This document shows positions 18,001 through 60,095 of a DNA stretch of 64,000 nucleotides, piece after piece (positions within the stretch are counted from its first letter, which is position 1; each line of letters begins with the position of its first letter). The position numbers and the translations under genes were made by a program. Source of the stretch: Heptranchias perlo (taxonomy: Eukaryota); NCBI RefSeq assembly GCF_035084215.1, contig NC_090370.1, forward strand, positions 25,482,001 through 25,546,000, written 5' to 3'. The notes below the pieces were generated by a model. The model was given only the letters and a program-made list of their open reading frames with translations. It was not told the DNA's origin and did not search any database.

Positions 18001-21000
18001 AATCCCACACTCACACACATTATCAGTGACTGACAGATACAGATTGAATCCCACACTCACACACAGTATCAGAGACTGACAGACACAGAATGAATCCCAC
18101 ACTCACATACAGTTACAGAGACTGACAGATACAGAATGAATCCCACACTCACACACAGTATCAGACACTGACAGATACAGAATGAATCCCACACTCACAC
18201 ACAGTATCAGAGACTGACAGATACAGGATGAATCCCACACTCACACACAGTATCAGACACTGACAGATACAGAATGAATCCCACACTCACACACAGTACC
18301 AGAGACTGACAGATACAGAATGAATCCCACACTCACACACAGTACCAGAGACTGACAGATACAGAATGAATCCCACACTCACATACAGTACCAGAGACTG
18401 ACAGATACAGAATGAATCCCACACTCACATACATTTTCAGAGACTGACAGATACAGAATGAATTGCACACTCACACAGAGTATCAGAGACTGACAGATGC
18501 AGAATGAATCCCACAATCACACACAGTAGCAGAGACTGACAGATACAGAATGAATCCCACACTCACAAACAGTATCAGACACTGACAGATACAGAATTAA
18601 CCCCACACTCACACACAGTACCGGAGACTGTCAGATACAGAATGAATCCCACACTCCCACAGAGTATCAGAGACTGACAGATACAGAATGAATCCCACAC
18701 TCACATACAGTACCAGAGGCTGACAGATACAGAATAAATCCCACACTCACACACAGTAACAGAGACTGTCAGATGCAGATTGAATCCCACACTCACACAC
18801 AGTATCAGAGACTGACAGACACAGAATGAATCCCACACTCACATACAGTTACAGAGACTGACAGATACAGAAATAATCCCACACTCACACACTGTATCAG
18901 AGACTGACAGATGCAGAATGAATCCCAAACTCACACACAGTACCAGAGACTGACAGATACAGAATGAATCCCACACTCACATGCAGTACCAGAGACTGAC
19001 AGATACAAAATGAATCCCACACTCACATACAGTACCAGAGACTGACAGATACAGAAATAATCCCACACTCACACACTGTATCAGAGACTGACAGATGCAG
19101 AATGAATCCCACACTCACACACAGTACCAGAGACTGACAGATACAGAATGAATCCCACACTCACACACAGTAACAGAGACTGTCAGATGCAGAATGAATC
19201 CCACACTCACACACTGTACCTGAGACTGACAGATGCAGAATGAATCCCACACTCACATACATTGTCAGAGACTGACAGATACAGAATGAATCCCACACTC
19301 ACACACAGTACCAGAGACTGACAGATATTGAATGAATCCCACACTCACATACAGTTTCAGAGACTTACAGATACAGAATGAATCCCACACTCACACACAG
19401 TACCAGAGACTGACAGATACAGAAATAATCCCACACTCACACACTGTATCAGAGACTGACAGATGCAGAATGAATCCCACACTCACACACAGTACCAGAG
19501 ACTGACAGATACAGAATGAATCCCACACTCACACACAGTAACAGAGACTGTCAGATGCAGAATGAATCCCACACTCACACACAGTATCAGAGACTGACAG
19601 ATACAGTAAGAATCCCACACTCACACACAGTATCAGAGACTGACAGATAAAGAAAGAATCCCACACTCACGCACAATACCAGAGACTAACAGATACTGAA
19701 TGAATCCCACACTCACACACAGTACCAGAGACTGACAGAAAGAGAATGAATCCCACACTCACATGCAGTATCAGAGACTGACAGATGCAGAATGAATCCC
19801 ACACTCACACACATTATCAGAGACTGACAGATACAGATTGAATCCCACACTCACACACAGTATCAGAGACTGACAGACACAGAATGAATCCCACACTCAC
19901 ATACAGTTACAGAGACTGACAGATACAGAATGAATCCCACACTCACACACAGTATCAGATACTGACAGATACAGAATGAATCCCACACTCACACACAGTA
20001 CCAGAGACTGACAGATACAGAATGAATCCCACACTCACATACAGTACCAGAGACTGACAGATACAGAATGAATCCCACACTCACATACATTTTCAGAGAC
20101 TGACAGATACAGAATGAATTGCACACTCACACAGAGTATCAGAGACTGACAGATGCAGAATGAATCCCACACTCACATACAGTAGCAGAGACTGACAGAT
20201 ACAGAATGAATCCCACACTCACAAACAGTATCAGACACTGACAGATACAGAATGAACCCCACACTCACACACAGTACCAGAGACTGTCAGATACAGAATG
20301 AATCCCACACTCACATACATGTCAGAGACTGACAGATACAGAATGAATCCCACACTCATACACAGAACCAGAGACTGACAGATGCAGAATGAATCCGACA
20401 CTCAAACACTTTATCTGAGACTGACAGATACAGAATGAATCCCTCACTCACACACAGTACCAGAGACTGACAGATACAGAATGAATCCCACACTCACACA
20501 CAGTATCAGAGACTGACAGACACAGAATGAATTGCACTCTCACACACAGTATCAGAGACTGACAGAAACAGAATGAATCCCACAGTCACACACAGTACCA
20601 GAGACTGACAGATACAGAATGAATCCCACACTCACAAACAGTACCAGAAACTGACAGATACAGAAATAATCCCACACTCACACACTGTATCAGAGACTGA
20701 CAGATGCAGAATGCATCCCACAGTCACACACAGTACCAGAGACTGTCAGATGCAGAATGAATCCCACACTCACACACTGTACCTGAGACTGACAGATGCA
20801 GAATAAATCCCACACTCACACACAGTACCAGAGACTGTCAGATATTGAATGAATCCCACACTCACATACAGTTTCAGAGACTGACAGATACAGAAATTAT
20901 CCCACACTCACACACTGTATCAGAGACTGACAGATGCAGAATGAATCCCACACTCACACACAGTACCAGAGACTGACAGATACAGAATGAATCCCACACT

Positions 21001-24000
21001 CACACACAGTAACAGAGACTGTCAGATGCAGAATGAATCCCACACTCACACACTGTACCTGAGACTGACAGATGCAGAATGAATCCCACACTCACATACA
21101 TTGTCAGAGACTGACAGATACAGAATGAATCCCACACTCACACACAGTATCAGATACTGACAGATACAGAATGAATCCCACACTCACACACAGTACCAGA
21201 GACTGACAGATACAGAATGAATCCCACACTCACACACAGTACCAGAGACTGACAGATACAGAAAGAATCCCACACTCACATACAGTACCAGAGACTGACA
21301 GATACAGAATGAATCCCACACTCACATACATTTTCAGAGACTGACAGATACAGAATGAATTGCACACTCACACAGAGTATCAGAGACTGACAGATGCAGA
21401 ATGAATCCCACACTCACATACAGTCGCAGAGACTGACAGATACAGAATGAATCCCACACTCACAAACAGTATCAGACACTGACAGATCCAGAATGAACCC
21501 CACACTCACACACAGTACCAGAGACTGTCAGATACAGAATGAATCCCACACTCCCACAGAGTATCAGAGACTGACAGACACAGAATGAATCCCACACTCA
21601 CATACAGTATCAGAGACTGACAGATACAGAATGAATCCCACACTCACATACAGTACCAGAGGATGACAGATGCAGAATGAATCCCACACTCACACACAGT
21701 ATCAGAGACTGTCAGATGCAGAATGAATCCCACACTCACACACTGTACCTGAGACTGACAGATACAGAATGAATCCCTCACTCACATACATGTCAGAGAC
21801 TGACAGATACAGAATGAATCCCACACTCATACACAGAACCAGAGACTGACAGATGCAGAATGAATCCGACACTCAAACACTTTATCTGAGACTGACAGAT
21901 ACAGAATGAATCCCTCACTCACACACAGTACCAGAGACTGACAGATACAGAATGAATCCCACACTCACACACAGTATCAGAGACTGACAGATACAGAATG
22001 AATTGCACTCTCACACACAGTATCAGAGACTGACAGAAACAGAATGAATCCCACAGTCACACACAGTACCAGAGACTGACAGATACAGAATGAATCCCAC
22101 ACTCACACACTGTATCAGAGACTGACAGATGCAGAATGAATCCCACAGTCACACACAGTACCAGAGACTGTCAGATGCAGAATGAATCCCACACTCACAC
22201 ACTGTACCTGAGACTGACAGATGCAGAATAAATCCCACACTCACACACAGTACCAGAGACTGTCAGATATTGAATGAATCCCACACTCACATACAGTTTC
22301 AGAGACTGACAGATACAGAATGAATCCCACACTCACACACAGTACCAGAGACTGACAGATATTGAATGAATCCCACACTCACATACAGTTTCAGAGACTG
22401 ACAGATACAGAATGAATCCCACACTCACACACAGTACCAGAGACTGACAGATATTGAATGAATCCCACACTCACATGCAGTATCAGAGACTGACAGATGC
22501 AGAATGAATCCCAAACTCACACACAGTACCAGAGACTGACAGATACAGAATGAATCCCACACTCACATACAGTACCAGAGACTGACAGAAACAAAATGAA
22601 TCCCACACTCACATACAGTACCAGAGACTGACAGATACAGAAATAATCCCACACTCACACACTGTATCAGAGACTGACAGATGCAGAATGAATCCCACAC
22701 TCACACACAGTACCAGAGACTGACAGATACAGAATGAATTCCACACTCACACACAGTAACAGAGACTGTCAGATGCAGAATGAATCCCACACTCACACAC
22801 TGTACCTGAGACTGACAGATGCAGAATGAATCCCACACTCACATACATTGTCAGAGACTGACAGATACAGAATGAATCCCACACTCACACACAGTATCAG
22901 AGACTGTCAGATACAGAATGAATCCCACACTCCCACAGAGTATCAGAGACTGACAGATACAGAATGAATCCCACACTCACAAACAGTATCAGAGACTGAC
23001 AGATACAGAATGAATCCCACACTCACACACAGTATCAGAGACTGTCAGATGCAGAATGAATCCCACACTCACACACTGTACCTGAGACTGACAGATACAG
23101 AATGAATCCCTCACTCACATACATTGTCAGAGACTGACAGATACAGAATGAATCCCACACTCACACACAGAACCAGAGACTGACAGATGCAGAATGAATC
23201 CCACACTCAAACACATTATCTGAGACTGACAGATACAGAATGAATCCCACTCTCACATGCAGCATCAGAGACTGACAGATACAGAATGAATCCCAAACTC
23301 ACACACATTATCAGAGACTGACAGATACAGAAGGAATCCCACACTCACACACAGTATCAGAGACTGACAGATACAGAATGAATCCCACACTAACACACAG
23401 GACCAGAGACTGACAGATACAGAATGAATCCCACACTCACATACAGTACCAGAGACTGACAGACACAGAATGAATCCCACACTCACACACTGTATCAGAG
23501 ACTGACAGATGCAGAATGAATCCCACACTCACACACAGTATCAGAGACTGACAGATACAGAATGAATCCCACACTCACATACAGTACCAGAGACTGACAG
23601 ATACAGAATGAATCCCACACTCACACACAGTACCAGAGACTGACAGATACAGAAGGAATCCCAAACTCACACACAGTATCAGAGACTGACAGATACAGAT
23701 TGAATCCCACACTCACACACAGAATCAGAGACTTACAGATACATAATGAATCCCACACACACACAGTACCAGAGACTGACAGACGCAGAATGAATCCCAC
23801 ACTCACATGCAGTATCTGAGATTGACAGATACAGAATGAATCCCACACTCACGTACAATATCAGAGACTGACAGATACAGAATGAATCCCACACTCACGT
23901 ACAATATCAGAGACTGACAGATACAGAATGAATCCCACACTCACACACAGTACCAGAGACTGACAGATGCAGAATGAATCCCACACTCACATACAGTATC

Positions 24001-27000
24001 TGAGACTGACAGATGCAGAATGAATCCCACACTCACACACAGTATCAGAGACTGACAGATACAGAATGAATCCCACACTCACACACAGTATCTGAGACTG
24101 ACAGATGCAGAATGAATCCCACACTCACACACAGTATCAGAGACTGACAGATACAGAATGAATCCCACACTCACACACAGTACCAGAGACTGACATATAC
24201 AGAATGAATCCCACACTCACACACAGTATCAGAGACTGACAGATGCAGAATGAATCCCACACTCACACACAGTACCAGAGACTGACAGATACAGAATGAA
24301 TCCCACACTCACATACATCATCAGAGACTGACAGATACAGGATGAATCCCACACTCACACACAGTATCAGAGACTGACAGATACAGAATTAATCCCACAC
24401 TCACACACAGGACCAGAGACTGACAGACACAGATGGAATCCCACACTCACATACATTATCAGAGACTGACAGATACAGAATGAATCCCACACTCACACAC
24501 AGTAGCAGAAACTGACAGATACAGAATGAATTCCAAACTCACACACAATACCAGAGACTGACAGATACAGAATGAATCCCACACTCACACACAATACCAG
24601 AGACTGACAGATGCAGAATGAATCCCACACTCACACACAGAACCAGAGACTGACAGATACAGAATGAATCCCACACTCACATACAGAATCAGAGACTGAC
24701 AGATACAGAATGAATCCCACACTCACACACAGTATCAGAGACTGACAGATACAGAATTAATCCCACACTCACACACAGTACCAGAGACTGACAGATATTG
24801 AATGAATCCCACACTCACATGCAGTATCAGAGACTGACAGATGCAGAATGAATCCCAAACTCACACACAGTACCAGAGACTGACAGATACAGAATGAATC
24901 CCACACTCACATACAGTACCGGAGACTGACAGATACAGAATGAATCCCACACTCACAGACAGTACCAGAGACTGACAGACACAGAATGAATCCCACACTC
25001 ACAGACAATGTCAGAGACTGACAGAAACAGAATGAATCCCACACTCACATACATTATCAGAAACTGACAGATACATAATGAATCCCACACTCACACACAG
25101 TATCAGAGACTGACAGATGCAGAATGAATCCCACACTCACATACATTATCAGAAACTGACAGATGCAGAATGAATCCCACACACACACAGTACCAGAGAC
25201 TGACAGACGCAGAATGAACCCCACACTCACATCCAGTATCTGAGATTGACAGATGCAGAATGAATCCCACACTCACGTACAATATCAGAGACTGACAGAC
25301 ACAGAATGAATTGCACACTCACACACAGTATCAGAGATTGACACAAAAAAATGAATCCCACATGCACACAGTACCAGAGACTGACAGATACAGAATGAAT
25401 CCCACACTCACACACAGTATCAGAGATTGACACAAAAAAATGAATCCCACATGCACACAGTATCAGAGACTGACAGATACAGAATGAATCCCACACTCAC
25501 ACACAGTATCAGAGACTGACAGATACAGAATGAATCCCACACTCACATACAGTACCAGAGAATGACAGATACAGAATGAATCCCACACTCACACACAGTA
25601 CCAGAGACTGACAGATACAGAAGGAATCCCAAACTCACACACAGTATCTGAGATTGACAGATACAGAATGAATCCCACACTCACGTACAATATCAGAGAC
25701 TGACAGATACATAATGAATCCCACACTCACACACAGTACCAGAGACTGACAGATGCAGAATGAATCCCACTCTCACATGCAGTATCAGAGACTGACAGAT
25801 ACAGAATGAATCCCAAACTCACACACTGTATCAGAGATTGACAGATGCAGAATGAATCCCACACTCACAGACAGTAACAGAGACTGACAGATACAGAATG
25901 AATCCCACACTCACACACAGCACCAGAGACTGACAGATACAGAATGAATCCCACACTCACACACAGTGTCAGAGACTGACAGATACAGAATGAATCCCAC
26001 ACTCACACACAGTTTCAGAGACTGACAGATACAGAATGAATCCCACACTCACATACCGTATCAGAGACTGACAGATACAGAATGAATCCCACACTCACAT
26101 GCAGTATCAGAGACTGACAGATGCAGAATAAATCCCGCACTCACACAAAGTATCAGAGACTGACAGATACAGAATGAATCCCACACTCACACACTGTATT
26201 AGAGACTGACAGATACAGAATGAATCCCACACTCACACACATGATCAGAGACTGACAGATACAGAATGAATCCCACACTCACATACAGTTGCAGAGACTG
26301 ACAGATACAGAATGAATCCCACACTCACACACAGTATCAGAGACTGTCAGATACAGAATGAATCCCACACTCACATACAGTACCAGAGGCTGACAGATAC
26401 AGAATGAATCCCACACTCACACACAGTATCAGAGACTGTCAGATACAGAATGAATCCCACACTCACATACAGTACCAGAGGCTGACAGATACAGAATGAA
26501 TCCCACACTCACACACAGTATCAGAGACTGTCAGATGCAGAATGAATCCCACACTCACACACTGTCCCTGATACTGACAGATACAGAATGAATCCCTCAC
26601 TCACATGCATTGTCAGAGACTGACAGATACAGAATGAATCCCACACTCACACACTGGACCTGAGACTGACAGATGCAGAATGAATCCCACACTCACATAC
26701 ATTGTCAGATACTGACAGATACAGAATGAATCCCACACTCACACACAGTACCAGAGACTGACAGATATTGAATGAATCCCACACTCACGTCCAGTACCAG
26801 AGACTGATAGATACAGAATGAATCCCACACTCACACACAGTATCAGAGACTGACAGACACAGAAAGAATCCCACACTCACACACAGTGCCAGAGACTGAA
26901 AGATGCAGAAAGAACCCCACACTCACACACAGTACCAGAGACTGTCAGATACAGAATGAATCCCACACTCCCTCAGAGTATCAGAGACTGACAGATACAG

Positions 27001-30000
27001 AATGAATCCCACACTCACATACAGTATCAGAGACTGACAGATACAGAATGAATCCCACACTCACACACAGTAACAGAGACTGACAGATGCAGAATGAATC
27101 CCACACTCACACAAAGTACTGGAGACTGACAGATACAGAATGAATCCCACACTCACACACATTATCAGAGACTGACAGATACAGAATGAATCCCACACTC
27201 ACACACATTGTCAGAGACTGACAGATACAGATTGAATCCCACACTCACACACAGTATCAGAGACTGACAGATACAGAATGAATCCCACACTCACATTCAG
27301 TTGCAGAGACTGACAGATGCAGAATGAATCCCACACTCACATACAGGAACAGAGGCTGACAGATGCAGAATGAATCCCACACTCAAACACATTATCAGAG
27401 ACTGACAGATACAGAATGAATCCCACTCTGACATGCAGTATCAGAGACTGACAGATACAGAATGAATCCCAAACTCACACACAGTATCAGAGACTGACAG
27501 ATACAGAATGAATCCCACACTAACACACAGTACCAGAGACTGACAGATACATAATGAATCCCACACTCACATACGGTACCAGAGACTGACAGATACAGAA
27601 TGAATCCCACACTCACACACTGTATCAGAGACTGACAGATGCAGAATGAATCCCACACTCACAGACAGTAACAGAGACTGACAGATACAGAATGAATCCC
27701 ACACTCACACACAGTATCAGAGACTGACAGATACAGAATGAATTGCACGCTCACACACAGTATCAGAGACTGACAGAAACAGAATGAATCCCACAGACAC
27801 GCACAGTACCAGAGACTGACAGATACAGAATGAATCCCACACTCACATACAGTACCAGAGACTGACAGATACAGAAAGAATCCCACACTCACACACTGTA
27901 TCAGAGACTGACAGATGCAGAATGAATCCCACACTCACACACAGTACCAGAGACTGACAGATACAGAATGAATCCCACACTCACACGCAGTATCAGAGAC
28001 TGTCAGATGCAGAATGAATCCCACACTCACACACTGTACCTGAGACTGACAGATACAGAATGAATCCCAAACTCACACACAGTACCAGAGACTGACAGAT
28101 GCAGAATGAATCCCACACTCACACACAGTATCAGAGACTGACAGGTACAGAATGAATCCCACACTCACACACAGTATCAGAGACTGACAGATACAGAATG
28201 AATCCCACACTCACACACAGTACCAGAGACTGACAGATATTGAATGAATCCCACACTCACATACAGTATCAGAGACTGACAGATGCAGAATGAATCCCAA
28301 ACTCACACACAGTTCCAGAGACTGACAGATACAGGATGAATCCCACACTCAAACACATTATCAGAGACTGACAGATACAGAATGAATCCCACACTCACAT
28401 CCAGTACCAGAGACTGACAGATGCAGAATGAATGCCACACTCACACACTGTATCAGAGACTGACAGATGCAGAATGAATCCCACACTCACACACAGTACC
28501 AGAGACTGACAGATACATAATGAATCCCACACTCACACACAGTACCAGAGACTGACAGATACAGAATGAATCCCACACTCACATGCAGTACCAGAGACTG
28601 ACAGATACAGAATGAATCCCACACTCACATACGTTTTCAGAGACTGACAGATACAGAATGAATTGCACACTCACACACAGTGCCAGAGACTGAAAGATAC
28701 AGAAAGAACCCCACACTCACACACAGTACCAGAGACTGACAGATACAGAATGAATCCCACACTCACATACATTTTCAGAGACTGACAGATACAGAATGAA
28801 TCCCACACTCACATACATTTTCAGAGACTGACAGATACAGAATGAATCCCACACTCACACACAGTACCAGAGACTGACAGATGCAGAATGAATCCCACAC
28901 TCACATGCAGTGCCAGAGACTGAAAGATACAGAAAGAACCCCACACTCACACACAGTACCAGAGACTGTCAGACACAGAATGAATCCCACACTCACACAC
29001 AGTATCAGAGACTGACAGATGGAGAATGAATCCCACACTCACACACAGTATCAGAGACTGACAGATACAGAATGAATCCCACACTCACACACAGTATCAG
29101 AGACTGACAGATACAGAAAGAATCCCACACTCACACACAGTGCCAGAGACTGAAAGATACAGAATGAATCCCACACTCACACACAGCACCAAAGACTGAC
29201 AGATACAGAATGAATCCCACACTCACATACAGTATCAGAGACTGACAGATACAGAATGAATCCCACACTCACACACAGTACCAGAGACTGACAGATACAG
29301 AATGAATCCCACACTCACATACAGTATCAGAGACTGACAGATGCAGAATGAATCCCACACTCACACCAAGTACTAGAGACTGACAGATACAGAATGAATC
29401 CCACACTCACACACATTATCAGAGACTGACAGATACAGATTGAATCCCACACTCACACACAGTATCAGAGACTGACAGATACAGAATGAATCCCACACTC
29501 ACATTCAGTTGCAGAGACTGACAGATGCAGAAAGAATCCCACACTCACATCCTGTACCTGAGACTGACAGATACAGAATAAATCCCTCACTCACATACAT
29601 TGTCAGAGACTGACAGATACAGAATGAATCCCACACTCACATACATTATCAGAGACTGACAGAGACAGAATGAATCCCACACTCACACACAGTACCAGAG
29701 AGTGACAGATACAGAATGAATCCCACACTCACACACAGTTTCAGAGACTGACAGATACAGAATGAATTGCAAGCTCACACACAGTATCAGAGACTGACAG
29801 AAACAGAATGAATCCCACACTCACACACAGTACCAGAGACTGACAGATACAGAATGAATCCCACACTCACATACAGTACCAGAGACTGACAGATACAGAA
29901 TGAATCCCACACTCACATGCATTTTCAGAGACTGACAGATACAGAATGAATCCCACACTCACATACATTTTCAGAGACTGACAGATACAGAATGAATCCC

Positions 30001-33000
30001 ACACTCACATGCAGTATCAGAGACTGACAGATGCAGAATAAATCCCACACTCACACAAAGTACTGGAGACTGACAGATACAGAATGAATCCCACACTCAC
30101 ACACAGTATCAGAGACTGACAGATACAGAATGAATCCCACACTCACATACAGTTGCAGAGACTGACAGATACAGAATGAATCCCACACTCACATACAGTA
30201 CCAGAGGCTGACAGATGCAGAATGAATCCCACACTCACACACTGTACCTGATACTGACAGATACAGAATGAATCCCACACTCACATACATTGTCAGAGAC
30301 TGACAGATACAGAATGAATCCCACACTCACACACAGTACCAGAGACTGACAGATATTGAATGAATCCCACACTCACATACAGTTTCAGAGACTTACAGAT
30401 ACAGAATGAATCCCACACTCACACACAGTACCAGAGACTGACAGATATTGAATGAATCCCACACTCACATACAGTACCAGAGACTGATAGATACAGAATG
30501 AATCCCACACTCACACACAGTATCAGAGACTGACAGATACAGAATGAATCCCACACTCAAACACAGTGCCAGAGACTGAAAGATACAGAATGAATCCCAC
30601 TCTGACATGCAGTATCAGAGACTGACAGATACAGAATGAATCCCAAACTCACACACAGTATCAGAGACTGACAGATACAGAATGAATCCCACACTAACAC
30701 ACAGTACCAGAGACTGACAGATACATAATGAATCCCACACTCACAGACAGTAACAGAGACTGACAGATACAGAATGAATCCCACACTCACACACAGTATC
30801 AGAGACTGACAGATACAGAATGAATTGCACGCTCACACACAGTATCAGAGACTGACAGAAACAGAATGAATCCCACAGACACGCACAGTACCAGAGACTG
30901 ACAGATACAGAATGAATCCCACACTCACATCCAGTACCAGAGACTGACAGATACAGAAAGAATCCCACACTCACACACTGTATCAGAGACTGACAGATGC
31001 AGAATGAATCCCACACTCACACACAGTACCAGAGACTGACAGATACAGAATGAATCCCACACTCACACGCAGTATCAGAGACTGTCAGATGCAGAATGAA
31101 TCCCACACTCACACACTGTACCTGAGACTGACAGATACAGAATGAATCCCAAACTCACACACAGTACCAGAGACTGACAGATGCAGAATGAATCCCACAC
31201 TCACACACAGTATCAGAGACTGACAGGTACAGAATGAATCCCACACTCACACACAGTATCAGAGACTGACAGATACAGAATGAATCCCACACTCACACAC
31301 AGTACCAGAGACTGACAGATATTGAATGAATCCCACACTCACATACAGTATCAGAGACTGACAGATGCAGAATGAATCCCAAACTCACACACAGTTCCAG
31401 AGACTGACAGATACAGGATGAATCCCACACTCAAACACATTATCAGAGACTGACAGATACAGAATGAATCCCACACTCACATACAGTACCAGAGACTGAC
31501 AGATGCAGAATGAATGCCACACTCACACACTGTATCAGAGACTGACAGATGCAGAATGAATCCCACACTCACACACAGTACCAGAGACTAACAGATACAT
31601 AATGAATCCCACACTCACACACAGCACCAGAGACTGACAGATACAGAATGAATCCCACACTCACATGCAGTACCAGAGACTGACAGATACAGAATGAATC
31701 CCACACTCACATACGTTTTCAGAGACTGACAGATACAGAATGAATTGCACACTCACACACAGTGCCAGAGACTGAAAGATACAGAAAGAACCCCACACTC
31801 ACACACAGTACCAGAGACTGACAGATACAGAATGAATCCCACACTCACATACATTTTCAGAGACTGACAGATACAGAATAAATCCCACACTCACATACAT
31901 TTTCAGAGACTGACAGATACAGAATGAATCCCACACTCACACACAGTACCAGAGACTGACAGATGCAGAATGAATCCCACACTCACATACAGTGCCAGAG
32001 ACTGAAAGATACAGAAAGAACCCCACACTCACACACAGTACCAGAGACTGTCAGACACAGAATGAATCCCACACTCAGACACAGTATCAGAGACTGATAG
32101 ATGGAGAATGAATCCCACACTCACACACAGTATCAGAGACTGATAGATACAGAATGAATCCCAGACTCACATACATTTTCAGAGACTGACAGATACATAA
32201 TGAATCCCACACTCACATACAGTACCAGAGACTGACAGATGCAGAATGAATCCCACACTCACACACAGCACCAAAGACTGACAGATACAGAATGAATCCC
32301 ACACTCACATACAGTATCAGAGACTGACAGATACAGAATGAATCCCACACTCACACACAGTACCAGAGACTGACAGATACAGAATGAATCCCACACTCAC
32401 ATACAGTATCAGAGACTGACAGATGCAGAATGAATCCCACACTCACACCAAGTACTGGAGACTGACAGATACAGAATGAATCCCACACTCACACACATTA
32501 TCAGAGACTGACAGATACAGATTGAATCCCACACTCACACACAGTATCAGAGACTGACAGATACAGAATGAATCCCACACTCACATTCAGTTGCAGAGAC
32601 TGACAGATGCAGAAAGAATCCCACACTCACATCCTGTACCTGAGACTGACAGATACAGAATAAATCCCTCACTCACATACATTGTCAGAGACTGACAGAT
32701 ACAGAATGAATCCCACACTCACATACATTATCAGAGACTGACAGATACAGAATGAATCCCACACTCACACACAGTACCAGAGAGTGACAGATACAGAATG
32801 AATCCCACACTCACACACTGTATCAGAGACTGACAGATGCAGAATGAATCCCACACTCACACACAGTGCCAGAGACTGACAGATACAGAATGAATCCCAC
32901 ACTCACACACAGTTTCAGAGACTGACAGATACAGAATGAATTGCAAGCTCACACACAGTATCAGAGACTGACAGAAACAGAATGAATCCCACACTCACAC

Positions 33001-34820
33001 ACAGTACCAGAGACTGACAGATACAGAATGAATCCCACACTCACATACAGTACCAGAGACTGACAGATACAGAATGAATCCCACACTCACATACATTTTC
33101 AGAGACTGACAGATACAGAATGAATCCCACACTCACATACATTTTCAGAGACTGACAGATACAGAATGAATCCCACACTCACATGCAGTATCAGAGACTG
33201 ACAGATGCAGAATAAATCCCACACTCAAACAAAGTACTGGAGACTGACAGATACAGAATGAATCCCACACTCACACACAGTATCAGAGACTGACAGATAC
33301 AGAATGAATCCCACACTCACATACAGTTGCAGAGACTGACAGATACAGAATGAATCCCACACTCACATACAGTACCAGAGGCTGACAGATGCAGAATGAA
33401 TCCCACACTCACACACTGTACCTGATACTGACAGATACAGAATGAATCCCACACTCACATACATTGTCAGAGACTGACAGATACAGAATGAATCCCACAC
33501 TCACACACAGTACCAGAGACTGACAGATATTGAATGAATCCCACACTCACATACAGTTTCAGAGGCTTACAGATACAGAATGAATCCCACACTCACACAC
33601 AGTCCCAGAGACTGACAGATATTGAATGAATCCCACACTCACATACAGTACCAGAGACTGATAGATACAGAATGAATCCCACACTCACACACAGTATCAG
33701 AGACTGACAGATACAGAAAGAATCCCACACTCACACACAGTGCCAGAGACTGAAAGATGCAGAAAGAATCCCACACTCACACACAGTACCAGAGACTGTC
33801 AGATACAGAATGAATCCCACACTCCCACAGAGTATCAGAGACTGACAGATACAGAATGAATCCCACACTCACATACAGTATCAGAGACTGACAGATACAG
33901 AATGAATCCCACACTCACACACAGTACCAGAGACTGACAGATGCAGAATGAATCCCACACTCATACTAAGTACTGGAGACTGACAGATACAGAATGAATC
34001 CCACACTCACACACATTATCAGAGACTGACAGATACAGAATGAAACCCACACTCACATTCAGTTGCAGAGACTGACAGATGCAGAATGAATCCCAAACTT
34101 ACATCCTGTACCAGAGACTGACAGATACAGAATGAATCCCTCACTCACATACATTGTCAGAGACTGACAGATGCAGAATGAATCCCACACTCACATACAT
34201 TATCAGAGACTGACAGATGCAGAATGAATCCCACACTCACACACAGTCCCAGAGACTGACAGATACAGAATGAATCCCACACTCACACACAGTACCAGAG
34301 AGTGACAGATACAGAATGAATCCCACACTCACACACTGTATCAGAGACTGACAGATGCAGAATGAATCCCACACTCACACACAGTACCAGAGACTGACAG
34401 ATACAGAATGAATCCCACACTCACATACAGTACCAGAGACTGACAGATACAGAATGAATCCCACACTCACATACATTTTCAGAGACTGACAGATACAGAA
34501 TGAATTGCACACACACACAGAGTATCAGAGACTGACAGATGCAGAATGAATCCCACACTCACATACAGTATCAGAGACTGACAGATACAGAATGAATCCC
34601 ACACTCACATACATTATCAGAGACTGACAGATGCAGAATGAATCCCACACTCACACACAGCACCAGAGACTGACAGATACAGAATGAATCCCACACTCAC
34701 ACACAGTTACAGAGACTGACAGATACAGAATGAATCCCACACTCACATGCATTATCAGAGACTGACAGATGCAGCATGAATCCCACACTCACACACAGTA
34801 CCAGAGACTGAGAGATACAA
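1..34820. repeat. 46-bp tandem satellite array (~750 monomers), consensus TGACAGATACAGAATGAATCCCACACTCACACACAGTAYCAGAGAC; open at left window edge
   Basis: TGACAGA recurs at 1, 47, 93 and onward (period 46) with no non-repeat interruption until ~34820. Plus strand is A/C-rich and almost free of CpG. Confidence 0.99.
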
Positions 34821-37015
34821 AGTGAATCTCATCGTCACCTGCATTTGTGCAGGCTGAGTTCCAAATTACATAGCAAAGCAAAAATCTCACAGTTGTTGAT
34901 TGAAAGTTACCATCTCAATTCCATCAATGCAGGCTTAGTTGCACATTTGGTACCAGTCCAAAAATCTCTTACAGTATCAGACTGATAGATACAGTGTCAA
35001 TTTCTTTAGTGCAGGATAAGCTACATATTACATACCAGTCCAAACATCTCATACAGTGTCAGACGCAGATAGAGAATTAATCCAATTATTGCAGACTGAA
35101 CTGCACATTGCATACCAGTCCAGTAATTTCACTGTGAACATATTGAAAGATACATTATCATTCACAATAGATTTCAGAGATTAAGATGTAACACTACTCC
35201 AAAACTCACACACATTGTTTGATTAACGAAAATCGAAAAGTAATCCCTATTTACAAATTAAATACTCGAAAAAGAACTGTATATATTTTAAAGTATTAAA
35301 GATACAGTTTCAAATAAGGTACTGTAAACTGAAATAAGAATATGGAATGAATTCACACTTGCACATTGTCTCAGAGACTGAATTACAGAATGAATCCCTG
35401 ACTGAGATAAAGTAGCAGAGAATGGCAGATACAGAATGACTGACAGATGCAGAATATACCCCATGCTCACAGTCAGTACCAGAGACTGACAGATGCAGAA
35501 TGAATCCCACACTCACATACATTATCAGAGACTGACAGATGCAGAATGAATCCCACACTCACACACAGTCCCAGAGACTGACAGATACAGAATGAATCCC
35601 ACACTCACACACAGTACCAGAGAGTGACAGATACAGAATGAATCCCACACTTACACACTGTATCAGAGACTGACAGATGCAGAATATACCCCATGCTCAC
35701 AGTCAGTACCAGAGACTGACAGATATAGAATGAATCCTACACTCACATACAGTACCAGGAAAAGAATGAATCTCACTCATGCACAGTACCAGGGACTGAC
35801 AGATACAGAATGAATCTCACACTCACAAACAGTACCAGAGACTGACAGATTCAGAATGAATCACACACTCACATACAGTGTCAGAGACTGACAGATACAG
35901 AATGAATCTCACATTCACATTACTGCAGACTGAGCTGCACATTACATACCAGTCCAAAAATCTCATCGGGTCAGATTGAAAGATATCGTATCAATTCCTT
36001 TGGTGCAGACTGAGCTACATATTTGATATATTGGTAAGTGCTCGTGTTATACTGAAATAAACATTATCAATGCCATTGGTACAGACTGAGCTATTTCTTA
36101 CATACGAGTCCAAAAATCAAATAAATGATCAGACTGAAAGATATACTCTAAATTCTATTAGCACCATCTGAGCTAAATATTATATAACAGTCCAACAATC
36201 TCATACAATATTGGACTGAAAGATACAGTATCGATTCCATCAGTGCAGACTGAGCCACACATTATACAACAGTCCAAGAATGTCATCGGCCTATCAGACT
36301 CAAAGATACAATATCAATTCCATTAGCACAGACTGAGCTATATGTTACTCACCAGTCCAAAAATCTTATACAGTGTTTGACTCAGATACAGAATTAATCC
36401 CATTGTTGCAGACTGAACTACACATTACATACCAGTCCATAATTTCAACGTGAACAGATTGAAAGGTACATTATCATTCACAATAGAGTTCAGAGATTAA
36501 ATGAAATACTACTCCAAAACTCACACACATTGTTTGATTAAAGAAAATCGAAAAGTGTATCCATATTAACAAATTAAATACTCGACAAAGAACTGCATAT
36601 ACTTTGAAGTGGTAAAGATATAGTTTCAAATACAATATTCTAAACTGAAATAAGAATCTAGAATGAATCCAGACTTGCACATTGTCTCAGAGACTGAATT
36701 ACAGAATGAAACCCTCACTCAGATAAAGTAGCAGAGAATGGCAGATACAGAATGTATCCCCCACACACACAGACAGTACCAGACACTGACAGGCACAGAA
36801 TTATGCCCACACTCACATAAAGCACCAGGGACTGACAGATACAGAACGAATCCATCACTTATATATAGTAGCTGAGACTGACTGATGCAGAATATACCCC
36901 ATGCTCACACTCAGTTCCAGAGACTGACAGATACAGAATGAATCCCAAACTCACACACAGTACCAGAGACTGACAGATACACAATAAACCCCACTCTCAC
37001 ATCCAGTACCAGAGA
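34821..37015 (+). repeat. Degenerate satellite flank (module A): alternating ~81-bp repeats, AT-rich linker and short 46-mer tracts
   Basis: Units like CAGACTGAGCTACACATTACATACCAGTCCAAAAATCTC alternate with 46-mers at ~35400-35920 and ~36690-37015. 35040-35430 resembles 36370-36760 (internal duplication). Confidence 0.85.
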
Positions 37016-38234: not shown

Positions 38235-38325
38235 TCAAATCCTTGAAGGACCCAGAATCAGTGTGATGTTTACTCCACCCGAGGCACAAGGAGCAGTCAG
38301 TGCAGCCAGCTCCTTCTCACACACA
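38235..38325 (+). other. Putative non-coding internal exon (orphan copy)
   Basis: Acceptor TTTTCTTCCTACAG and donor GTAAGT. Both splice signals are retained in the inverted paralog at 51122-51208. Confidence 0.5.
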
Positions 38326-41369: not shown

Positions 41370-41990
41370 AGCGAATAGGAAGAGGTTCGGAAGAAGTCAC
41401 CAAAACAATTAGGGAAGCAAACAGGAACCAGGAAATCAAATTATCAAGGAATATGAAAATAAATAGTAAATTATTCCACAGATACAAAAATAACAAAAGG
41501 AAAATCAGAATTGCTTGAGTGATGCACAAGATAAACTCACAGATAACGTCAGCGAAATGACAGCAATATTGAATTATTACTTTGCCTCAGTATTTACCTG
41601 AGAGATTAACAGGGTGAATATGATATTGGAGGAAGAGATCAATAAAGATATAAAGACATTTAAGTTCGAAAGGGCGGTTAAACTCCCGGTCCAGATGGAT
41701 TGCACCCGCACATATTAAATGAAGCAAAGGAAGAGATCGCAGAGGCAATGTTACATGTGTAGGAAAAATCATCACAAGAAGGAACAGTGACAGAGGACTG
41801 GATGACAGCTAATGTGATTCTTATATTTTAATACAGGAGATAGAACAAGTCCAGGGAACTATAGACCAGTTAACTAAAGGTCGGTGGCAGGAATGATCAT
41901 GGAATCTTTTACTCAATGATGCAATAGAAAAACATCTAGAAACCGAAAATATAATAAAGAATAGTCAGCACGGATTTCAGAAAGGGAAGG
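41370..41990 (+). mobile_element. Decayed CR1-clade LINE ORF2 fragment
   Basis: Piecewise translation gives ILNYYFASVFT, PGPDGLHP.IL, EDW.TANV, PGNYRPV and SQHGF, with frameshifts. Confidence 0.85.
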
Positions 41991-43503: not shown

Positions 43504-43878
43504 ATGCCTGAGGACAAGAAAGCAGCTCCCAAAAAGGGCGCCAAGAAAACCTTGAGTAAAGCACCGGGCAAGGGCGGCAAGAAGCGGAGAAAGTCGAGGA
43601 AAGAGAGTTACTCCATCTACATCTACAAAGTGATGAAGCAGGTTCACCCCGACACCGGCATCTCGTCCAAGGCCATGAGCATCATGAACTCCTTTGTGAC
43701 CGACATTTTCGAGCGCATCGCAGGTGAGGCTTCCCGCCTGGCCCATTACAACAAGCGGGCGACTATCAGCTCCCGGGAGATCCAGACCGCCGTGCGCCTG
43801 CTGTTGCCCGGGGAACTGGCCAAGCACGCCGTGTCAGAAGGGACAAAGGCGGTGACCAAATACACCAGCTCCAAGTAA
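43504..43878 (+). CDS. H2B: Histone H2B (copy 1, 124 aa, N67T relative to canonical)
   Basis: [12 protein letters not shown]...[26 protein letters not shown]...AVTKYTSSK. True ATG at 43504. Confidence 0.98.
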
Positions 43879-45944: not shown

Positions 45945-46025
45945 CTTCGTGCGGCCGTTGGCTGGTGCTTTACTGAAGGATTTCTTGGTGCCTTTCTTGG
46001 GAGCTGTTTTCTTGTCCTCAGGCAT
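45945..46025 (-). pseudogene. H2B: Truncated H2B pseudogene (first ~27 codons)
   Basis: Reverse strand reads MPEDKKTAPKKGTKKSFSKAPANGRTKS and then unrelated sequence. H2B 5' UTR and promoter homology continues at 46026-46165. Confidence 0.9.
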
Positions 46026-46165
46026 TTTCAAATTAAATTTCTGAACCAGAAATGAGACAAATCCGCTCCGAGCTCTGATGAAATAGGCAGCCCCACAGCC
46101 CTATGGTAATGAGGGATGGGTGAAGGCAATGATTGTGATTTGACGGATGGGAGTGATGCCACCTG

Positions 46166-47050
46166 ACATAGAAAATATGAGTAAGAGTCGGCCATTCCGG
46201 CCTTCGGGTCTGCTCCGCCATTCGAAATGATCATAGCTGATCGTCGAACTCAGTACCCTGTTCCTGCTTTTTCCCCATATAGAAACATAGGAACAGGAGC
46301 AGGCCATTCAGCCCCTCCTGCCTGCTCTGCCATTTGATAAGATCATGGCTGATCTGTGATCGAACGCCATGTATTCGCCTTTGGCCCATATCCCTTAATA
46401 CCTTTGGTTGCCAAAAAGCTATCCATCTCAGATTTAAATTTAGCAATTGAGCTGGTATCAATTGCCGTTTGCGGAAGAGAGTTCCAAACTTCGACCACCC
46501 TTTGTGTGGAGAAATGTTTTTTAATCTCGCTCCTGAAAGGTCTGACTCTAATATCCCTTGATCCCTTTAGCAGTAAGAAATATATCTATCTCATTCTTGA
46601 ATACATCTAATGACTTGGCCTCAACTGCCTTCTGTGGTGGAGAATTCCACAGGTTCACCACCCTCTGAGTGAAGAATTTTCTCCTCATCTCGGTTCCAAA
46701 TTGCATACCCCGTATCCTGAGACTCTGACCCCTGGTTCTGGACTCTCCAGCCATCGGGAACATCCTCCCTGCATCTGGTCTGTCTCGTCCTGTTAGAATT
46801 TTATATGTTTTGAAGAGATCACCTCTCATTCTTTTAACTCTAGTGAATACTGGCCGAGTCGACCCAATCTCTCCTCATACGTCAGTTCTGCCATCCCAGG
46901 AATCAGTCTGGTTAACCTTCGTTGCACTCCCTCCATGGCAAGGACATCCTTCCTCAGATAAGGAGACCAGAACTGCACACAATACTCCAGATGTGGTCTC
47001 ACCAAGGCCCTGTATAACAGCAGTAAGACATCCCCAAAGACATCCCTGTT
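46166..47050 (-). mobile_element. CR1-clade LINE 3' fragment inserted in the psi-H2B promoter, with a nested second CR1 tail (46281-46550)
   Basis: LYRALVRPHLEYCVQFWSPY...; RRKFFTQRVVNLWNS. The nested element is flanked by ATAT (46277-46280 and 46551-46554). Confidence 0.9.
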
Positions 47051-50000
47051 TCTTTCACTCTCTGATTGGATATCTGAAGGAATCAATCAGATTTAGTACC
47101 TGCCACCAATCACAAACACGCTCACACTGCACATTGTCCGGTTTCAGCAATTTGTTCCGAACTGTTGCAGTTCTGCTTCCGGCCAGTAGATGTCCCCAAA
47201 CCCCGGGACAGTGAAGTTTGCAGATGAGAGAGGGACAGAACAGAAACTAATTCTTCACATTATATTGCACGAGTGGGATTTAGAAAAACTGGGAATGGAG
47301 ACGAGCTGCAAATGCATTTTGTTTGACCAAACATTAGTTGTAATGCTGTGTTACATTCTTATAATTGATTTAGGGGGTTATAGTCAATACTGAGGAAGAC
47401 TGCAACAAAGTAAGTCTGCAGAACGGCCGTGTTCATGACCATTGAATTTCAATATAGAAAGGTGTGAGCTGGTGCATTTTGCCTGGGGAACAAGTTGGCC
47501 ACATACTGCTTGGAAAATAAGAGTCTAAACGGGGTAGAGGAGCAATGTAAATCGAGCTGAGAAATCAGAGAGGAATACTGCGCAATGTACAGTGAAATAT
47601 AATGGGGAAAATTCACAACTATTGAATGAGTAAAACAAAACTTTATTATGAATATATTGTCCTCATTTTTTTACGATCAAAATGTGGAAAAATACGAGAG
47701 TAGAAGTTGGAGACAGAAACTTTCCTCACATTGCACATTGTCCTGTTTCTGTAACCACGACAGAAAATGTGAATTTGTTCCACTCTTTTGCAGTTCTCGC
47801 TTACGTCCAGTCGATGCCAGTCTCTGGTACTGTATATGAGAGTGGGGTTAATTCTGTATTTGTTGGTATCTGGTACTGTACACGAGTGTGGGATTTATTC
47901 TGTATCTGTCTGTCTCTTTTACTGTGTGTGAGTGTGGGATTTGTTCTGTATCTGTCAGTTTCTGGTACTTTACATGAGTGTGGGATTTATTCTGTATCTG
48001 TCAGTCTCTGGTACTGTCTGTGCGTGTGGGATTCATTCTGTGCCTGTCAGTCTCTGGTACTGTACATGTTTTTGGGGTTTATTCTGTATCTTTCACTCTC
48101 TGGTACTGTAAGCCAGTGTGGGCTTTATTCTGAATCTGTCTGTCTCCGGTGCTGTGTGCGAGTGTGGGTTTTATTCTGTATTTGTCACTCTCTGATACTG
48201 TATATGAGTGTGGGGTTTTATTCTGTATTTGTCACTCTCTGATACTATATATGAGTGTGGGACTAATTCTGTAACTGACATTCTCTGGTTCTTGCTGTGA
48301 GTGTGGGATTCATTCTGTATCTGTCATTCTCTGGTTGTTGCTGTGAGTGTGGAATTCATTCTGTATCAGCCATTCTCTGCTACTTTATCTCAGTGTGGGA
48401 TTCATTCTGCAATTCAGTCTCTGAGCCAATGTGCAAGTCTGGATTCACTCTGTTTTCTTATTTCAGTTTACATTATTTTATTTGAAACTATATATTTAAT
48501 ACTTTAAAGTACATGCTTTTTTGTCGAGTGTTTAATTTGTAAATATTGATACACTTTTGGATTTTCTTTAATCAAACAATGTGTGTGAGTTTTGGAGCAG
48601 TGTTATATCTTAATCTCTGAACTCTATTGTGAATGACAATGTACCTTTCAATCTGTTCACGGTGAAATTATTGGACTGGTATATAATGTGTAACTCAGTC
48701 TATAATAATAGAATTAATTCTGTATCTCAGTCTGATACTGTATGAGATTTTTGGACTGGTGCGTAACATGTAGCTCAGTGCATGCTAATGGAATTGATGT
48801 TGTATCTTTGAGTCTGATATGGTATGAAATTGTTCGACTGCAATGTAATGTTTTGCTCAGTCTGCACTAATCGAATTCAAACATTATCTTTCAATATGAC
48901 AATATAAGATTTTTGGACTGGCTTGTTATGTGTAACTCCGTCTGCAATAATGTGACTGTGAGATTCATTCTGTATCTGTCTGACTGTGGTACTTTGTGAT
49001 TCATTCTGTTACTGTCAGTCTCCGGCACGTGTTAATTTGGGATTCACTCCATATCTGTCAGTCTCTGATGCTGTATTTGAGTGAGACATTCATTCCATTT
49101 CCATCAATCTCTGATACTGTCTATGAGTGATATAAATTCTGTATCTGTCAGTCTGTGCTACTGTCTGTGAGTGTGGGATTTGTTCTGTATCTATCAATCA
49201 CTGGAACATTGTGTGAGTGTGAGAATCATTCTATTTGTCAGTCACTGTCACTGGATCTGAGTATGAGATTAATTCTTTATCTGTATCTAATTTGTATCTG
49301 TGTTTAGAATATGGCGTTCAAAACTGTATCTTTCATACCTAAATGTATAAATAATTTTTCCCAGTATTTAAGTGGTAGATAATCATATACTTTAAAATGT
49401 GATGCTGCAGGTTATAATCAGAGAATGAGTGCACTTTTTGGGCTACTCTTAAATCTGCATCGATGTGAACACAACTGTGATTTAGTGCATCTTCCAAACT
49501 GATATGGTGGCACTTTTGAACTTGTATATAATGTGTAGGTCAGTCTGCATGAATGCAATACTGTATATTTCAGTCTGAATCTGCATCAGATATTTTTTGT
49601 AGTGGTTTATAATATGTAGCTCAATCTGCACTAATGGAATTGATACTGTATCTTTCAATCTGACACTGAGATTTTTGGACTGGTACGTAATTTGTAACTC
49701 AGCCTGCACAAATGGAGGTGACTGCGAGATTGACTTTGTATCTCTCACTCCGTGATACTGTGTGGGATTCATTCTGTTTCTGTCAGTTTCCAGTATTGTA
49801 TGTGGGTGTTGAATTCATTTTAAATATGCAATTTCTCAAACTGTCTGCCCGTGTGGGATTGAATCAATAACCTGGTACTCTATGATTTGAGAGATTCATT
49901 CTGTATATACAATCGCTGGTACTGTGTGTGAGTGTGGGATTCATTCTGTATCTAAGTCTCTGGTACTGTGTGTGAGTGTGGGTTTCAGTCTTTTTATACA

Positions 50001-51680
50001 GTCTCTAATATTGTGTGTGTTGAATTCATTACATATATGCAGTTTCTCAAACTCTAAGTTTGTGATTCAGTCTGAATCTCTCAGTCTCTGGTACTGTGAG
50101 TGTGGGATTCATACTTTATCTGCCAGTATCTGGTACATTATGAGAGTGTGGGACTCATTCTGTATCTGTCAATTCTGGTACCATACATGAGTGCGGGATT
50201 CATTCTGTATCTGTCTATAATTATTCTCTCAGATTATATTATGGCATTCAATACTGTAGCTTTAATATCTTCATGTTTAGTTTTTCTCACTATTTAATTG
50301 GTAAATATGGATAAACTTTAGGATTTGTTGCTGGAGGTTTTTAATCAGATAATTTGTGTGCTTTTTGGACCACTATTAAATCTATATTTCTGTGTAATAT
50401 TGTGAATGATAATATATATTTCAAACTGATAGTGATTTTTGAATTGGTACATAATGTGCAGCTCAGTCTGTACTATTGTAATCGATACTGTGTCTTTCAA
50501 TCTAATATTGTATGAGAATTTTGGACTGGTATGTAATTTATATCTCAGTCAGCACTAATAGAATTGATACAGGATCTTTACATCTCATACAATGAGTGTA
50601 TTATAAACTGGTCTATAATTTGTTTCTCAGGTTACACTGTCACAGCATTTCTCAATCTGATAATGTACATGTGTTTAAGACTTGCCTGCAGTTTGTCTCT
50701 CATGATAACACTATTTGAATCGATACTGCATGTATTAAACTCACATGTGAGAGTTCAGGGCGAGTATTCAATTGAAATCTCGAGGTACATTATTGGGGTT
50801 CATTCTGTACCTTTGAATCGGGTACCATGTGTGATTTCTATCTGGTATTTAATTCGGAGCTAATGTTGCCCTATTGTGAGATTGACACAGTGCCTTTCAA
50901 TCTGAAAGCATGATTTTGAACTGGGATTTTTGCATCCACCTGTCAGCGGGACTGAGTTCGGGGGAAATGGTGAACAGCGTCTGCCTCACCTGCTCTGTTT
51001 GATGGTTGGATTGAAAATGTGTCTCTGGAACTTGGGATCAGTGTGGGACTGACCACTTCTGCTGTCTGAGACTGTGGAACTGATGACCTGTCTGTGTCTC
51101 TGTGTGTGATAATGTACCTACTGTTTGTGAGAAGGAGCTGGCCGCACTGTTCCTTCTGCCTCGGGTGGAGGAAACATCACATTTATTCTGGGTCCTTCAA
51201 GGATTTGCCTGTAGAAAGAAAATTATATCTTGTTACTCAGGAACAGGTGAAGTAGAAAATACAAAAGTGATCAATTTAATATCTCTGTTAATGATCATTT
51301 CGAATATCCACAAGTGAAAACCAGTGATACAAAGAGTGTCAGTGTCTGACTCCACTGCAGTACTGCAGCTCTCAGCTTCTGTATACCAGGTGTGTTGGGC
51401 GATTTTAAAACAATTTAGTGACATCCAGACAGAACCCAACCCCTGCACTGAACCATGAATGGGACTACCCGATGGGGCGGGGACCTTTGTGCAGGTCAGG
51501 TTTCGAATCTCCTCTCCCATGGGACTAACCGTTCAACTGAAAGCAAAGAGCCGCTGTTTGAAATGTGTCCTTCACACTTCTCACCTGGTGCCGGCAGTAG
51601 ATGCTTTTTGTTTCACTCCCCACATCCTGACTGTCCGGCTCTGTTTCCACTGTTCACTGTCCAATCACAATAAACAGAAT
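47050..51680 (-). repeat. Inverted spacer module C (paralog of 34.8-37.75 kb and of 37.78-38.7 kb), with CTCF-like sites at 47166-47197 and 47789-47820 and degenerate satellite tracts at 47821-50220
   Basis: The reverse complement is collinear with module A; compare ORF pairs 37426-/47190+, 37911+/51233- and 37775-/51459+. Confidence 0.9.
51122..51208 (-). other. Putative non-coding exon 2
   Basis: Reverse strand: TTTTCTTTCTACAG|GCAAATCC...AAACA|GTAGGT. Confidence 0.5.
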
Positions 51681-51934
51681 GAGACTGGAACTAAACCAGG
51701 AACAATTCACTCCTGGTTTGGGGAGTCAAAGCAGCAATGATTTTAATAGCAGGTTCTTGACATTCTGTCTCCCTTCCCCTGGACACACACAGCAGGTTCT
51801 TCCCATTCTGTCTCCCACACCCTGGACACACACAGCCCGAGAATGCCCTCTCCCTTCCCCCACTCACTCCATGTTCCGGGACCAGTTCCTGATCCACTCC
51901 GCCTCTTACAAACAGCCCCCGGACTCCCCCTGAC

Positions 51935-52200
51935 CTTCCCCCGGACTCAATGCCGATCTCTGAGCCCATCTGCGGACACGGTCCCGAAGCGATGAGCTGC
52001 TGTAACGAGGCTGCTCTTTGCTCCCTTCCCCCGGGGGCCGTGATCTCTCCATTCCCGGCTGTTTTTAACCATCTTCTTCCGCTCACTGAGGGAATGTCGC
52101 CCACAGGCCGAGCTGGGGGGGGGGGAGCGCGCATGCGCTCTTCTGCTCACCAGCGCTGAGGGCGGGGCTGAATCACGCATGCGCAGATATCTGGTTTAAT
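51935..52200 (-). promoter_or_regulatory. CpG-rich promoter with two NRF1-type palindromes and a GC box; putative first exon ending at donor AAG|GTCAGG
   Basis: GCGCATGCGC 52129-52138, GGGCGGGGC 52160-52168, ACGCATGCGCA 52175-52185. Direction inferred from the splice donor at 51934. Confidence 0.6.
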
Positions 52201-52944
52201 TCCCGATACAAAAATCGATGGAAACTTTCCCCAATTGGAATTTTTCAGAGTCTGAGCAAAGGAAGTGGGGGAAAGGTCAGAGGGAATGGGGTCCACAGGC
52301 AGTGCAGGAACAGGCACCAGAATGGGAAACAGATGGGATTCCACCGGTGCCGAACGCTGGAATCCAGACTGACTTTACAATCTCCAACTATTGAACGAGA
52401 TGTTTCCATCCCTGCTGTTCCTCTCGGTATATTTTGATGGTAAAGGGTCTATCAGAGATAACGTGGGCGGCTGTGGAATGAGCCAACGTGTTCTGTTCAT
52501 TCTTGGTTCCTCTACTGATAAAGTAACGCGTGAACCCGAAACTGGAGGGAGGATTTCTCAAACCAATCCTGGAGAAACATGGGAGGAAAGTGGGGCTCGG
52601 TGTATTTGCTGGGACTGTGCAGGATGAATATCTGACGGCAACAGTCCCAGTTTATTTCAATCAGAGTGAAACTCTCGGTCACTGAGAGTAATACTGAACG
52701 GCCCTCTGCTGCAAGATTACAAAGGGTACAATATGCAAGAGAGGATTAAATGTGTGACACTGTCCCTGAGAGTGGGATTAATAACGTGTCTGTCTCTGGA
52801 ATAAGATCAGTTAGAGATGAGACTGCATCTTCTGTCATTCAACCTTGGAATAGCAATTGGAATGGAATGATTCCCTATTTGTTACTGGGTGAAAACCGCT
52901 CATTACAGCTCAGTTTCTCTGTCTCTCTTGTACTTTATATGGAG

Positions 52945-55979: not shown

Positions 55980-56300
<321 letters not shown>

Positions 56301-59654: not shown

Positions 59655-60095
<441 letters not shown>

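Follow-up and report, generated by a model that had tools for sequence, protein, structure and literature searches.

The window analysed here, that is, the whole stretch of DNA under study, comprises 64 kb of the forward strand of Heptranchias perlo NC_090370.1 (25,482,001-25,546,000; G000:C49), from a genome of 3.25 Gb. It opens with an array of a 46-bp repeat and then carries, in order, H2B, H2A, H1, H4, H3, H2A and H2B, with blocks of the 46-mer and of an 82-mer in between (Table 1). An Rfam scan of the window placed the histone 3' stem-loop only after H2A, H1, H3 and H2A, and none scored above threshold after H2B or H4 (43504-43878, 55989-56300 and 60945-61319). The second H2A (59655-60044) has R20W-like and Y39D-like substitutions that are unusual relative to the first, and by its sequence is possibly a decaying copy.

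On the minus strand of this cluster lies a cassette which an earlier note on the same DNA had proposed from the letters as a spliced non-coding unit, running leftwards from a CpG-rich promoter with two NRF1 palindromes and a GC box, more than 2 kb from any histone start. These promoter elements are all present, and the closest histone start is that of H1 at 54362, at a distance of 2.18 kb. The NRF1-type core CGCATGCG has two occurrences in the entire 64-kb window, at 52130, where it forms a perfect 10-mer palindrome, and at 52176, with one mismatch. The CpG richness is real (GC 0.61 and CpG observed/expected 0.76 over 51850-52220) yet common in this cluster, where most 500-bp bins of 42500-64000 score 0.4-0.9. 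NRF1 and Sp1 sites are a mark of constitutive TATA-less promoters, and the composition of the cassette promoter makes it likely to be a constitutive polymerase II promoter of this NRF1/Sp1 type.

Table 1. Features of the window and of the array that enters it (window positions, except where C49 is given)
Feature	Position	Strand	Remarks
Analysed stretch	NC_090370.1 25,482,001-25,546,000	forward	64 kb
Giant 46-mer array	C49:25429872-25516828; window part 1..34828	+	86,957 bp, ~1891 copies
Second exon-2 copy, T-start	38235..38325	+	91 nt; belongs to the unit containing the giant array
LINE-derived exon (start)	41837..41990	+	acceptor between 41836 and 41837, 1.7 kb upstream of H2B; 3' end not fixed
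H2B	43504..43878	+	sense target of the array-containing unit
Segment found upstream of H2B in other copies	45945..47815	-	interrupted here by a LINE piece
Repeat-bearing stretch behind exon 2	47815..51121	-	46-mer blocks 49893-50210, 49042-49130 and 47818-48423, and degenerate 82-mer
Exon 2	51122..51208	-	87 nt; sequence signals and RNA contigs
Intron 1	51209..51934	-	726 nt, GT-AG; joints in RNA contigs
Exon 1	51935..52110	-	non-coding; most conserved part of the family; 5' end approximate
Promoter core	52100..52185	-	NRF1-type palindromes 52129-52138 and 52175-52184; GC box 52160-52167

The splice signals proposed earlier were likewise found. The donor AAG/GTCAGG has 51935 as its last exon base, exon 2 is framed by a good pyrimidine tract with AG and by GT, and the paralogous exon at 38235-38325 keeps both AG and GT at a length of 91 rather than 87 nt. 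Exon-2 AG and GT were retained in 51/51 copies that include this exon, while the body of exon 2 has diverged as much as the intron (diversity 0.100 vs 0.101), and both NRF1 cores were retained in 43/53 copies; thus these signals are kept beyond chance. Only 33/53 copies have the exon-1 donor in register. In several copies it is taken out by a 22-bp deletion (L115:5781-5790, at G000:C49:25548981, and L002, L019 and L020), the occurrence of which on different branches of the tree of units suggests gene conversion.

Behind exon 2 the cassette runs into a repeat-bearing stretch that corresponds to intron 2 of paralogues linked to zinc-finger genes, and its last 46-mer block contains six AATAAA. 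By eye, the 46-mer shares a 13-letter CA-rich match with the exon-2 end and its GT donor (51122-51135); the 46-mer may have grown out of the exon-2 end, or the match may be a low-complexity coincidence. The following segment, which is without a zinc-finger exon, ends in a 5' H2B fragment (46162-45945), beyond which lies a convergent H2A. The proposed orientation towards H2B was thus borne out, by this fragment in the window and, in most of the other copies sampled, by an H2B that is intact.

Copies of the cassette and the giant arrays

A 32-mer of exon 1 was found at 768 places in the genome at no more than one mismatch, and its reversed control at none. The order of promoter, exon 1, intron, exon 2 and 46/82-mer blocks is shared by copies from C49, C2, C3, C23, C402, C1275, C1392 and C1456, the sampled copies being a non-random set, namely the first places among the matches listed. 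The majority of them sit among histone genes. Most sampled histone-type copies have an intact H2B downstream in sense at 4-12 kb, which some reach through a second copy of exon 2, and other copies, that of the window included, end in the broken H2B-upstream segment facing H2A. Where places were selected through the 46-mer instead, 8/9 had the cassette upstream in sense. In copies among tRNA genes both NRF1 sites have been lost as a single 92-bp block, and tRNA genes were found around 6/6 such loci scanned. These copies (L041, L044, L045, L047, L056 and L059) belong to a repeated unit, present on several contigs, that also contains genes for tRNA-Leu, Lys, Val, Asn and Ile and an upstream H2A. 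Two copies (L052-L053 on C402 and L060-L054 on C1392) carry a near full-length LINE, with ORF1 and ORF2, antisense in intron 1. Derivatives of the 46-mer with periods of 36 and 39 bp were observed in L100, L102 and L114 (C1275) and in L076-L082; these periods, as multiples of three, give long low-complexity ORFs, which are likely to be mis-annotated as proteins.

Exon 1 stands out by its conservation. In 19 copies not chosen via exon 1 its diversity was 0.027, against 0.065-0.095 for the intron, that is, about threefold less divergence. In contrast, seven NRF1-deleted copies showed no such difference (0.026 vs 0.023-0.031), and exon-1 conservation thus tracks an intact promoter. Selection for an active first exon could explain this, as could a lower mutation rate at an unmethylated promoter. 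The fold of exon 1 was not unusually stable (z = -0.05), and the unit had no Rfam match at E up to 1.

It had also been suggested that the array of more than 35 kb at the start of the window lies inside such a unit. This holds. A complete unit with both NRF1 cores, a GC box and intact splice sites was found at C49:25427867-25429250, 54 kb left of the window, and the array starts 0.85 kb behind its exon 2; downstream of the array follow the 38235 exon, further repeats and then H2B. The suggestion had been conditional on module A sharing the layout of the window cassette. The array does stand behind a complete unit, but the 38235 exon has no promoter or exon 1 of its own and follows the array, after which it is likely to be the next exon. 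A second array (951 copies, 43.7 kb, C49:20733017-20776741) matches this layout, both arrays beginning ~0.85 kb past exon 2 and being followed by a second exon 2, and the two may share ancestry. No higher-order structure was found in the giant array, where the mean distance between units was 3.7-4.3 at all lags. AATAAA occurs in 47/101 last 46-mers near the downstream segment, compared with 70/373 elsewhere and 22/1129 in the giant array, and in 139/234 46-mers of zinc-finger introns, where it is spliced out. The minus strand of the array (C49:25429872-25516828), opposite to the unit, holds 1562 GTGAGT 5' splice-site hexamers, and antisense transcription would yield RNA dense in U1 sites.

Splicing of the cassette in RNA contigs

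Nine contig sets guessed to be RNA were available, with 8-17% of words shared, and six of them were compared (X1, X3, X5, X6, X7 and X8). All consist of unstranded contigs labelled 'RNA?', X1 and X3 are one sample, and the source organisms may be related species. In X1 the depth over 50650-53900, a sum over contigs that cannot rank the parts, was 186 000 and 175 000 in the exon bins, 0.3-6.8 thousand in purely intronic bins and ~70 upstream. X3 and X6 displayed the same pattern at a lower level, and X5 displayed no exon enrichment. The predicted junction from 51935 to 51208 was recovered in one X3 contig, which skips exactly 51209-51934 (GT-AG; the shorter arm spans 23 letters), but with the alleles of paralogues. 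Further GT-AG joints in X1 and X3 connect donors near 52086, 51867 and 51584 to the acceptor at 51208, and the contigs also contain an alternative intron 1 acceptor near 51656. Among the joints listed, those at these exons came from X1 and X3 only, with none for X5, X6, X7 or X8. A drop in contig depth from 52097 to 52148 hints weakly at a start near 52100-52120 that fires mainly leftwards.

The alleles of this RNA differ from those of the window copy. At 51143 the window allele accounted for ~5 of 281,020 depth in X1, and at 52097 for 0 of 46,685; several C49 copies carry the window letters at both positions, yet the RNA is nearly without them. The RNA alleles fit copies of the tRNA clusters at 20-23 of 23 sites, and three zinc-finger-linked copies at 33-35 of 38 diagnostic sites, these being the best-supported differences between RNA and window. 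Thus the spliced, leftward, non-coding unit stands at the level of the family, through an exact junction in an RNA contig, while expression of the window copy is unproven. The latter, which has none of the three downstream partners described below, is likely weak or silent in these samples.

Three partners downstream of exon 2 were seen in the RNA, and all of their joints skip the repeats. The first is a second exon 2 beginning with T, joined to the end of exon 2. First exons 2 start with GC in 51/53 motif hits (overlapping loci counted twice), and the T-start form comprises four second copies and one single-exon unit; the joint fits splicing across the repeats, since the T start marks second copies, and back-splicing is possible. 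The second partner is a LINE-derived exon, the joint to which had a depth of 1012 in X1 and 525 in X3 and letters identical to two neighbouring histone-type copies on C49. The third, a foreign exon in two X1 contigs, is the acceptor of the last exon of a C2H2 zinc-finger gene (204 matches; Pfam). The joints listed after exon 2 reach ~0.1-1 thousand depth, against ~281 thousand on exon 2. The three partners therefore make up a minor share of the depth on exon 2, and the joints listed do not reveal its main partner downstream.

The earlier note had further expected a satellite RNA, and a stable RNA containing the repeats did not emerge from the contigs, the downstream joints listed all passing over them. 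Bins of the 46-mer had high summed depth in 4/4 runs (77 000, 53 000, 17 000 and 36 000, with 56 000 in a second X1 bin) and 82-mer bins 0.7-6 thousand, values in which many genomic repeat copies collapse onto few, so that intron and last exon are indistinguishable. Since all three downstream joints skip the repeats, the satellite is likely intronic. Some RNAs may end inside the repeats as an exon, in keeping with the high 46-mer depth and the AATAAA-rich last 46-mers.

Three other candidates for the downstream end were set aside. A predicted third exon at 40630, with a good acceptor and AATAAA, and a predicted poly(A) site at 47647, retained by 19/30 aligned segments, had low cover in the matching bins, which lends them no support and proves nothing. 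A segment common with the tRNA-cluster copies, considered as exon 3, turned out to be LINE sequence.

Possible roles of the cassette and known systems

Taken together, the cassette is probably a constitutively transcribed element of ~770 copies, mainly of the histone repeat and spliced as a family, with an NRF1/Sp1-type promoter and the repeats as intron, which splices to any acceptor downstream. It would fire independently of the S-phase histone programme, and polymerase II would read through the repeat-bearing second intron and join exon 2 to whichever acceptor is available. Repeat length, being intronic, would be free to change, and unequal exchange within the histone array would spread the whole unit. 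On this account the satellite RNA would be mostly nascent intron made at the histone loci, conservation would concern an active promoter with its first exon, and not a protein or fold, and zinc-finger genes would have captured the cassette secondarily. The RNA is more likely to be a by-product of a maintained promoter than to have a scaffold role.

Such a scaffold role would be that of an architectural RNA, a nuclear CA-rich satellite transcript resembling hsr-omega, which binds hnRNP-type proteins and organises the histone locus. The layout matches that of hsr-omega as far as the available part of its description goes (PMC1636489); the repeat lies constantly in one orientation behind the unit and has ~8 CA dinucleotides per 46-mer; the 87-kb array, read in sense, has no acceptor with a pyrimidine tract and just 28 AATAAA; and 46-mer contigs occur in all four runs, from a repeat estimated at ~40,000 copies genome-wide (11,804 exact matches, calibrated at 548/1891). 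However, besides the joints skipping the repeats, arrays range from 5 to 1891 copies, no RNA was tied to the giant array itself, and the cassette also occurs in clusters of tRNA genes and of zinc-finger genes. We regard this role as doubtful. To the same degree we hesitate over the wider proposal that sharks have a polymerase II lncRNA cassette of ~770 copies in the histone repeat whose CA-rich satellite, grown to 44-87 kb in some copies, would be transcribed at the histone loci and act as an hsr-omega-like scaffold RNA, and whose portable promoter would have founded a zinc-finger subfamily.

The reverse derivation, in which the cassette was ancestrally the promoter and 5' UTR of C2H2 genes, and the copies in the histone clusters are debris without a coding exon, is less probable still. 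It draws on 7/7 exact-acceptor loci (C1456 and C1562) at which the full cassette is followed on the same strand, after 5.4-7.6 kb, by a zinc-finger exon (Pfam zf-C2H2, PF00096; E 4e-51 and 1.2e-26) and intron 2 contains 36-56 46-mers, as well as on the upstream RNA alleles, which as mentioned above fit zinc-finger-linked copies far better than the window. In silico splicing makes exons 1 and 2 the 5' UTR of these genes, every frame stopping ahead of the zinc-finger start codon. In contrast, ~45-51 zinc-finger acceptors (51 with a tighter pattern, 44 of them on C1456/C1562) stand against the 768 exon-1 copies, and the cassette was absent at 10/10 one-mismatch zinc-finger-type acceptors on other contigs (5-10 kb searched, in two cases mostly on the wrong side). 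This C2H2 subfamily thus shares promoter and both exons with the cassette, whereas the other zinc-finger loci sampled showed no cassette, and the window and most sampled copies are without a zinc-finger exon. In 194 kb around the window no such exon was found, except for a 71-bp acceptor-like piece and a stop-containing chance motif.

A tree of 51 units, midpoint-rooted and with a weak backbone, from which two units with a LINE in intron 1 were left out, unites the seven linked copies in one clade (support 0.993) nested among histone-type copies; gene conversion among copies is likely. They also retain histone-cluster flanks. Because of this nesting and these flanks, a zinc-finger exon is more likely to have captured the cassette than the other way round, although the root is weak. 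Exon 1 is moreover conserved in copies that are not linked to zinc fingers (0.036 vs 0.068-0.097), and one RNA joint, that to the LINE-derived exon, is letter-identical to histone-type copies. The alternative of 'a lncRNA or 5' UTR' left by the earlier note is thus answered by both. The exons do belong to a known protein-coding family elsewhere, but only as the 5' UTR of a minority of copies.

A cassette acting as an alternative upstream promoter of H2B, giving a spliced and cell-cycle-independent H2B mRNA, would suit the histone-type copies, most of those sampled, that face H2B in sense and an acceptor-like site at 46041, immediately ahead of the H2B fragment's start codon. No exon 2-H2B joint was present among the joints listed, with the complete unit and the 5' end of H2B as reference, many copies are convergent with H2A or H4 or have no histone gene downstream, and the three ATGs of exon 1 would lie upstream of the H2B start codon; we consider this reading very unlikely. 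A small protein encoded by the exons can practically be dismissed: the 87-nt exon does have one open frame continuing an exon-1 ATG kept in 64/64 copies, but the three exon-1 frames have pN/pS of 1.11, 1.50 and 1.49 in these copies, with indels in 10 and a premature stop in one frame in 48/64, exon 2 varies in length without preserving frame (83, 86, 87 or 91 nt), and the one exon-1 frame tested had no Pfam hit and only two marginal hits (E ~9e-4, 29-37%) among 1.84 billion proteins, so that the non-coding nature claimed for the unit is upheld. A reading as a piRNA cluster was dropped, the embedded LINE pieces lying in both orientations.

Vertebrate histone repeats are usually viewed as histone genes with an inert spacer. 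In this genome that spacer contains hundreds of copies of a conserved and spliced non-histone unit, which also encloses the cluster's largest satellites. We found no paper describing such a unit in sharks in the literature covered, which takes in few subscription papers and no supplements. This analysis contributes the number of copies, the placing of arrays within the unit, the partners that follow exon 2, the probable capture by zinc-finger genes and the dependence of exon-1 conservation on the promoter. The cassette also illustrates a route for new genes, in that one zinc-finger subfamily seems to owe its promoter and 5' UTR to a histone repeat. Should the RNA be no more than a by-product, the main interest would be evolutionary.

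Among known systems, the closest in layout is hsr-omega (93D), a Drosophila lncRNA described, in the accessible part of the source, as having two small exons, a 700-bp intron and long 3' tandem repeats (PMC1636489). The cassette likewise has two short exons, an intron of ~700 bp, kilobases of short tandem repeats and short ORFs without protein evidence. The comparison concerns layout only, with no homology claimed. By that same partial account, hsr-omega is one locus with a long nuclear RNA that keeps the intron and repeats, whereas the cassette has ~770 copies and the joints seen remove the repeats (PMC1636489). In chicken, LL2R and the 41-bp PO41/CNM repeats are lampbrush tandem-repeat transcription units that form RNP nuclear domains (PMC7151628). 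Like the cassette, they have a short tandem repeat (~40-46 bp) that is transcribed as one unit. They differ in that RNP domains were shown and no histone-repeat setting is described in the portion of that paper available.

At the histone loci of the newt Notophthalmus, satellite is transcribed by read-through from histone promoters, according to excerpts of the reports (PMC11602149 citing Diaz and Gall 1985; PMC2114352; PMC5615363). A transcribed satellite beside histone genes is common to both systems (PMC11602149, PMC2114352), and satellite blocks lie between the histone genes here too. Read-through from histone promoters is possible in shark oocytes. However, a start at histone promoters is not what was found, the arrays beginning directly behind exon 2 and RNA cover beginning at exon 1 of the cassette. 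Thus, in contrast to the read-through model drawn from the available newt passages, in which transcription starts at histone promoters (PMC11602149, PMC2114352), the repeats here lie behind a spliced non-histone promoter and exons of their own, which would give satellite transcription at histone loci a defined promoter.
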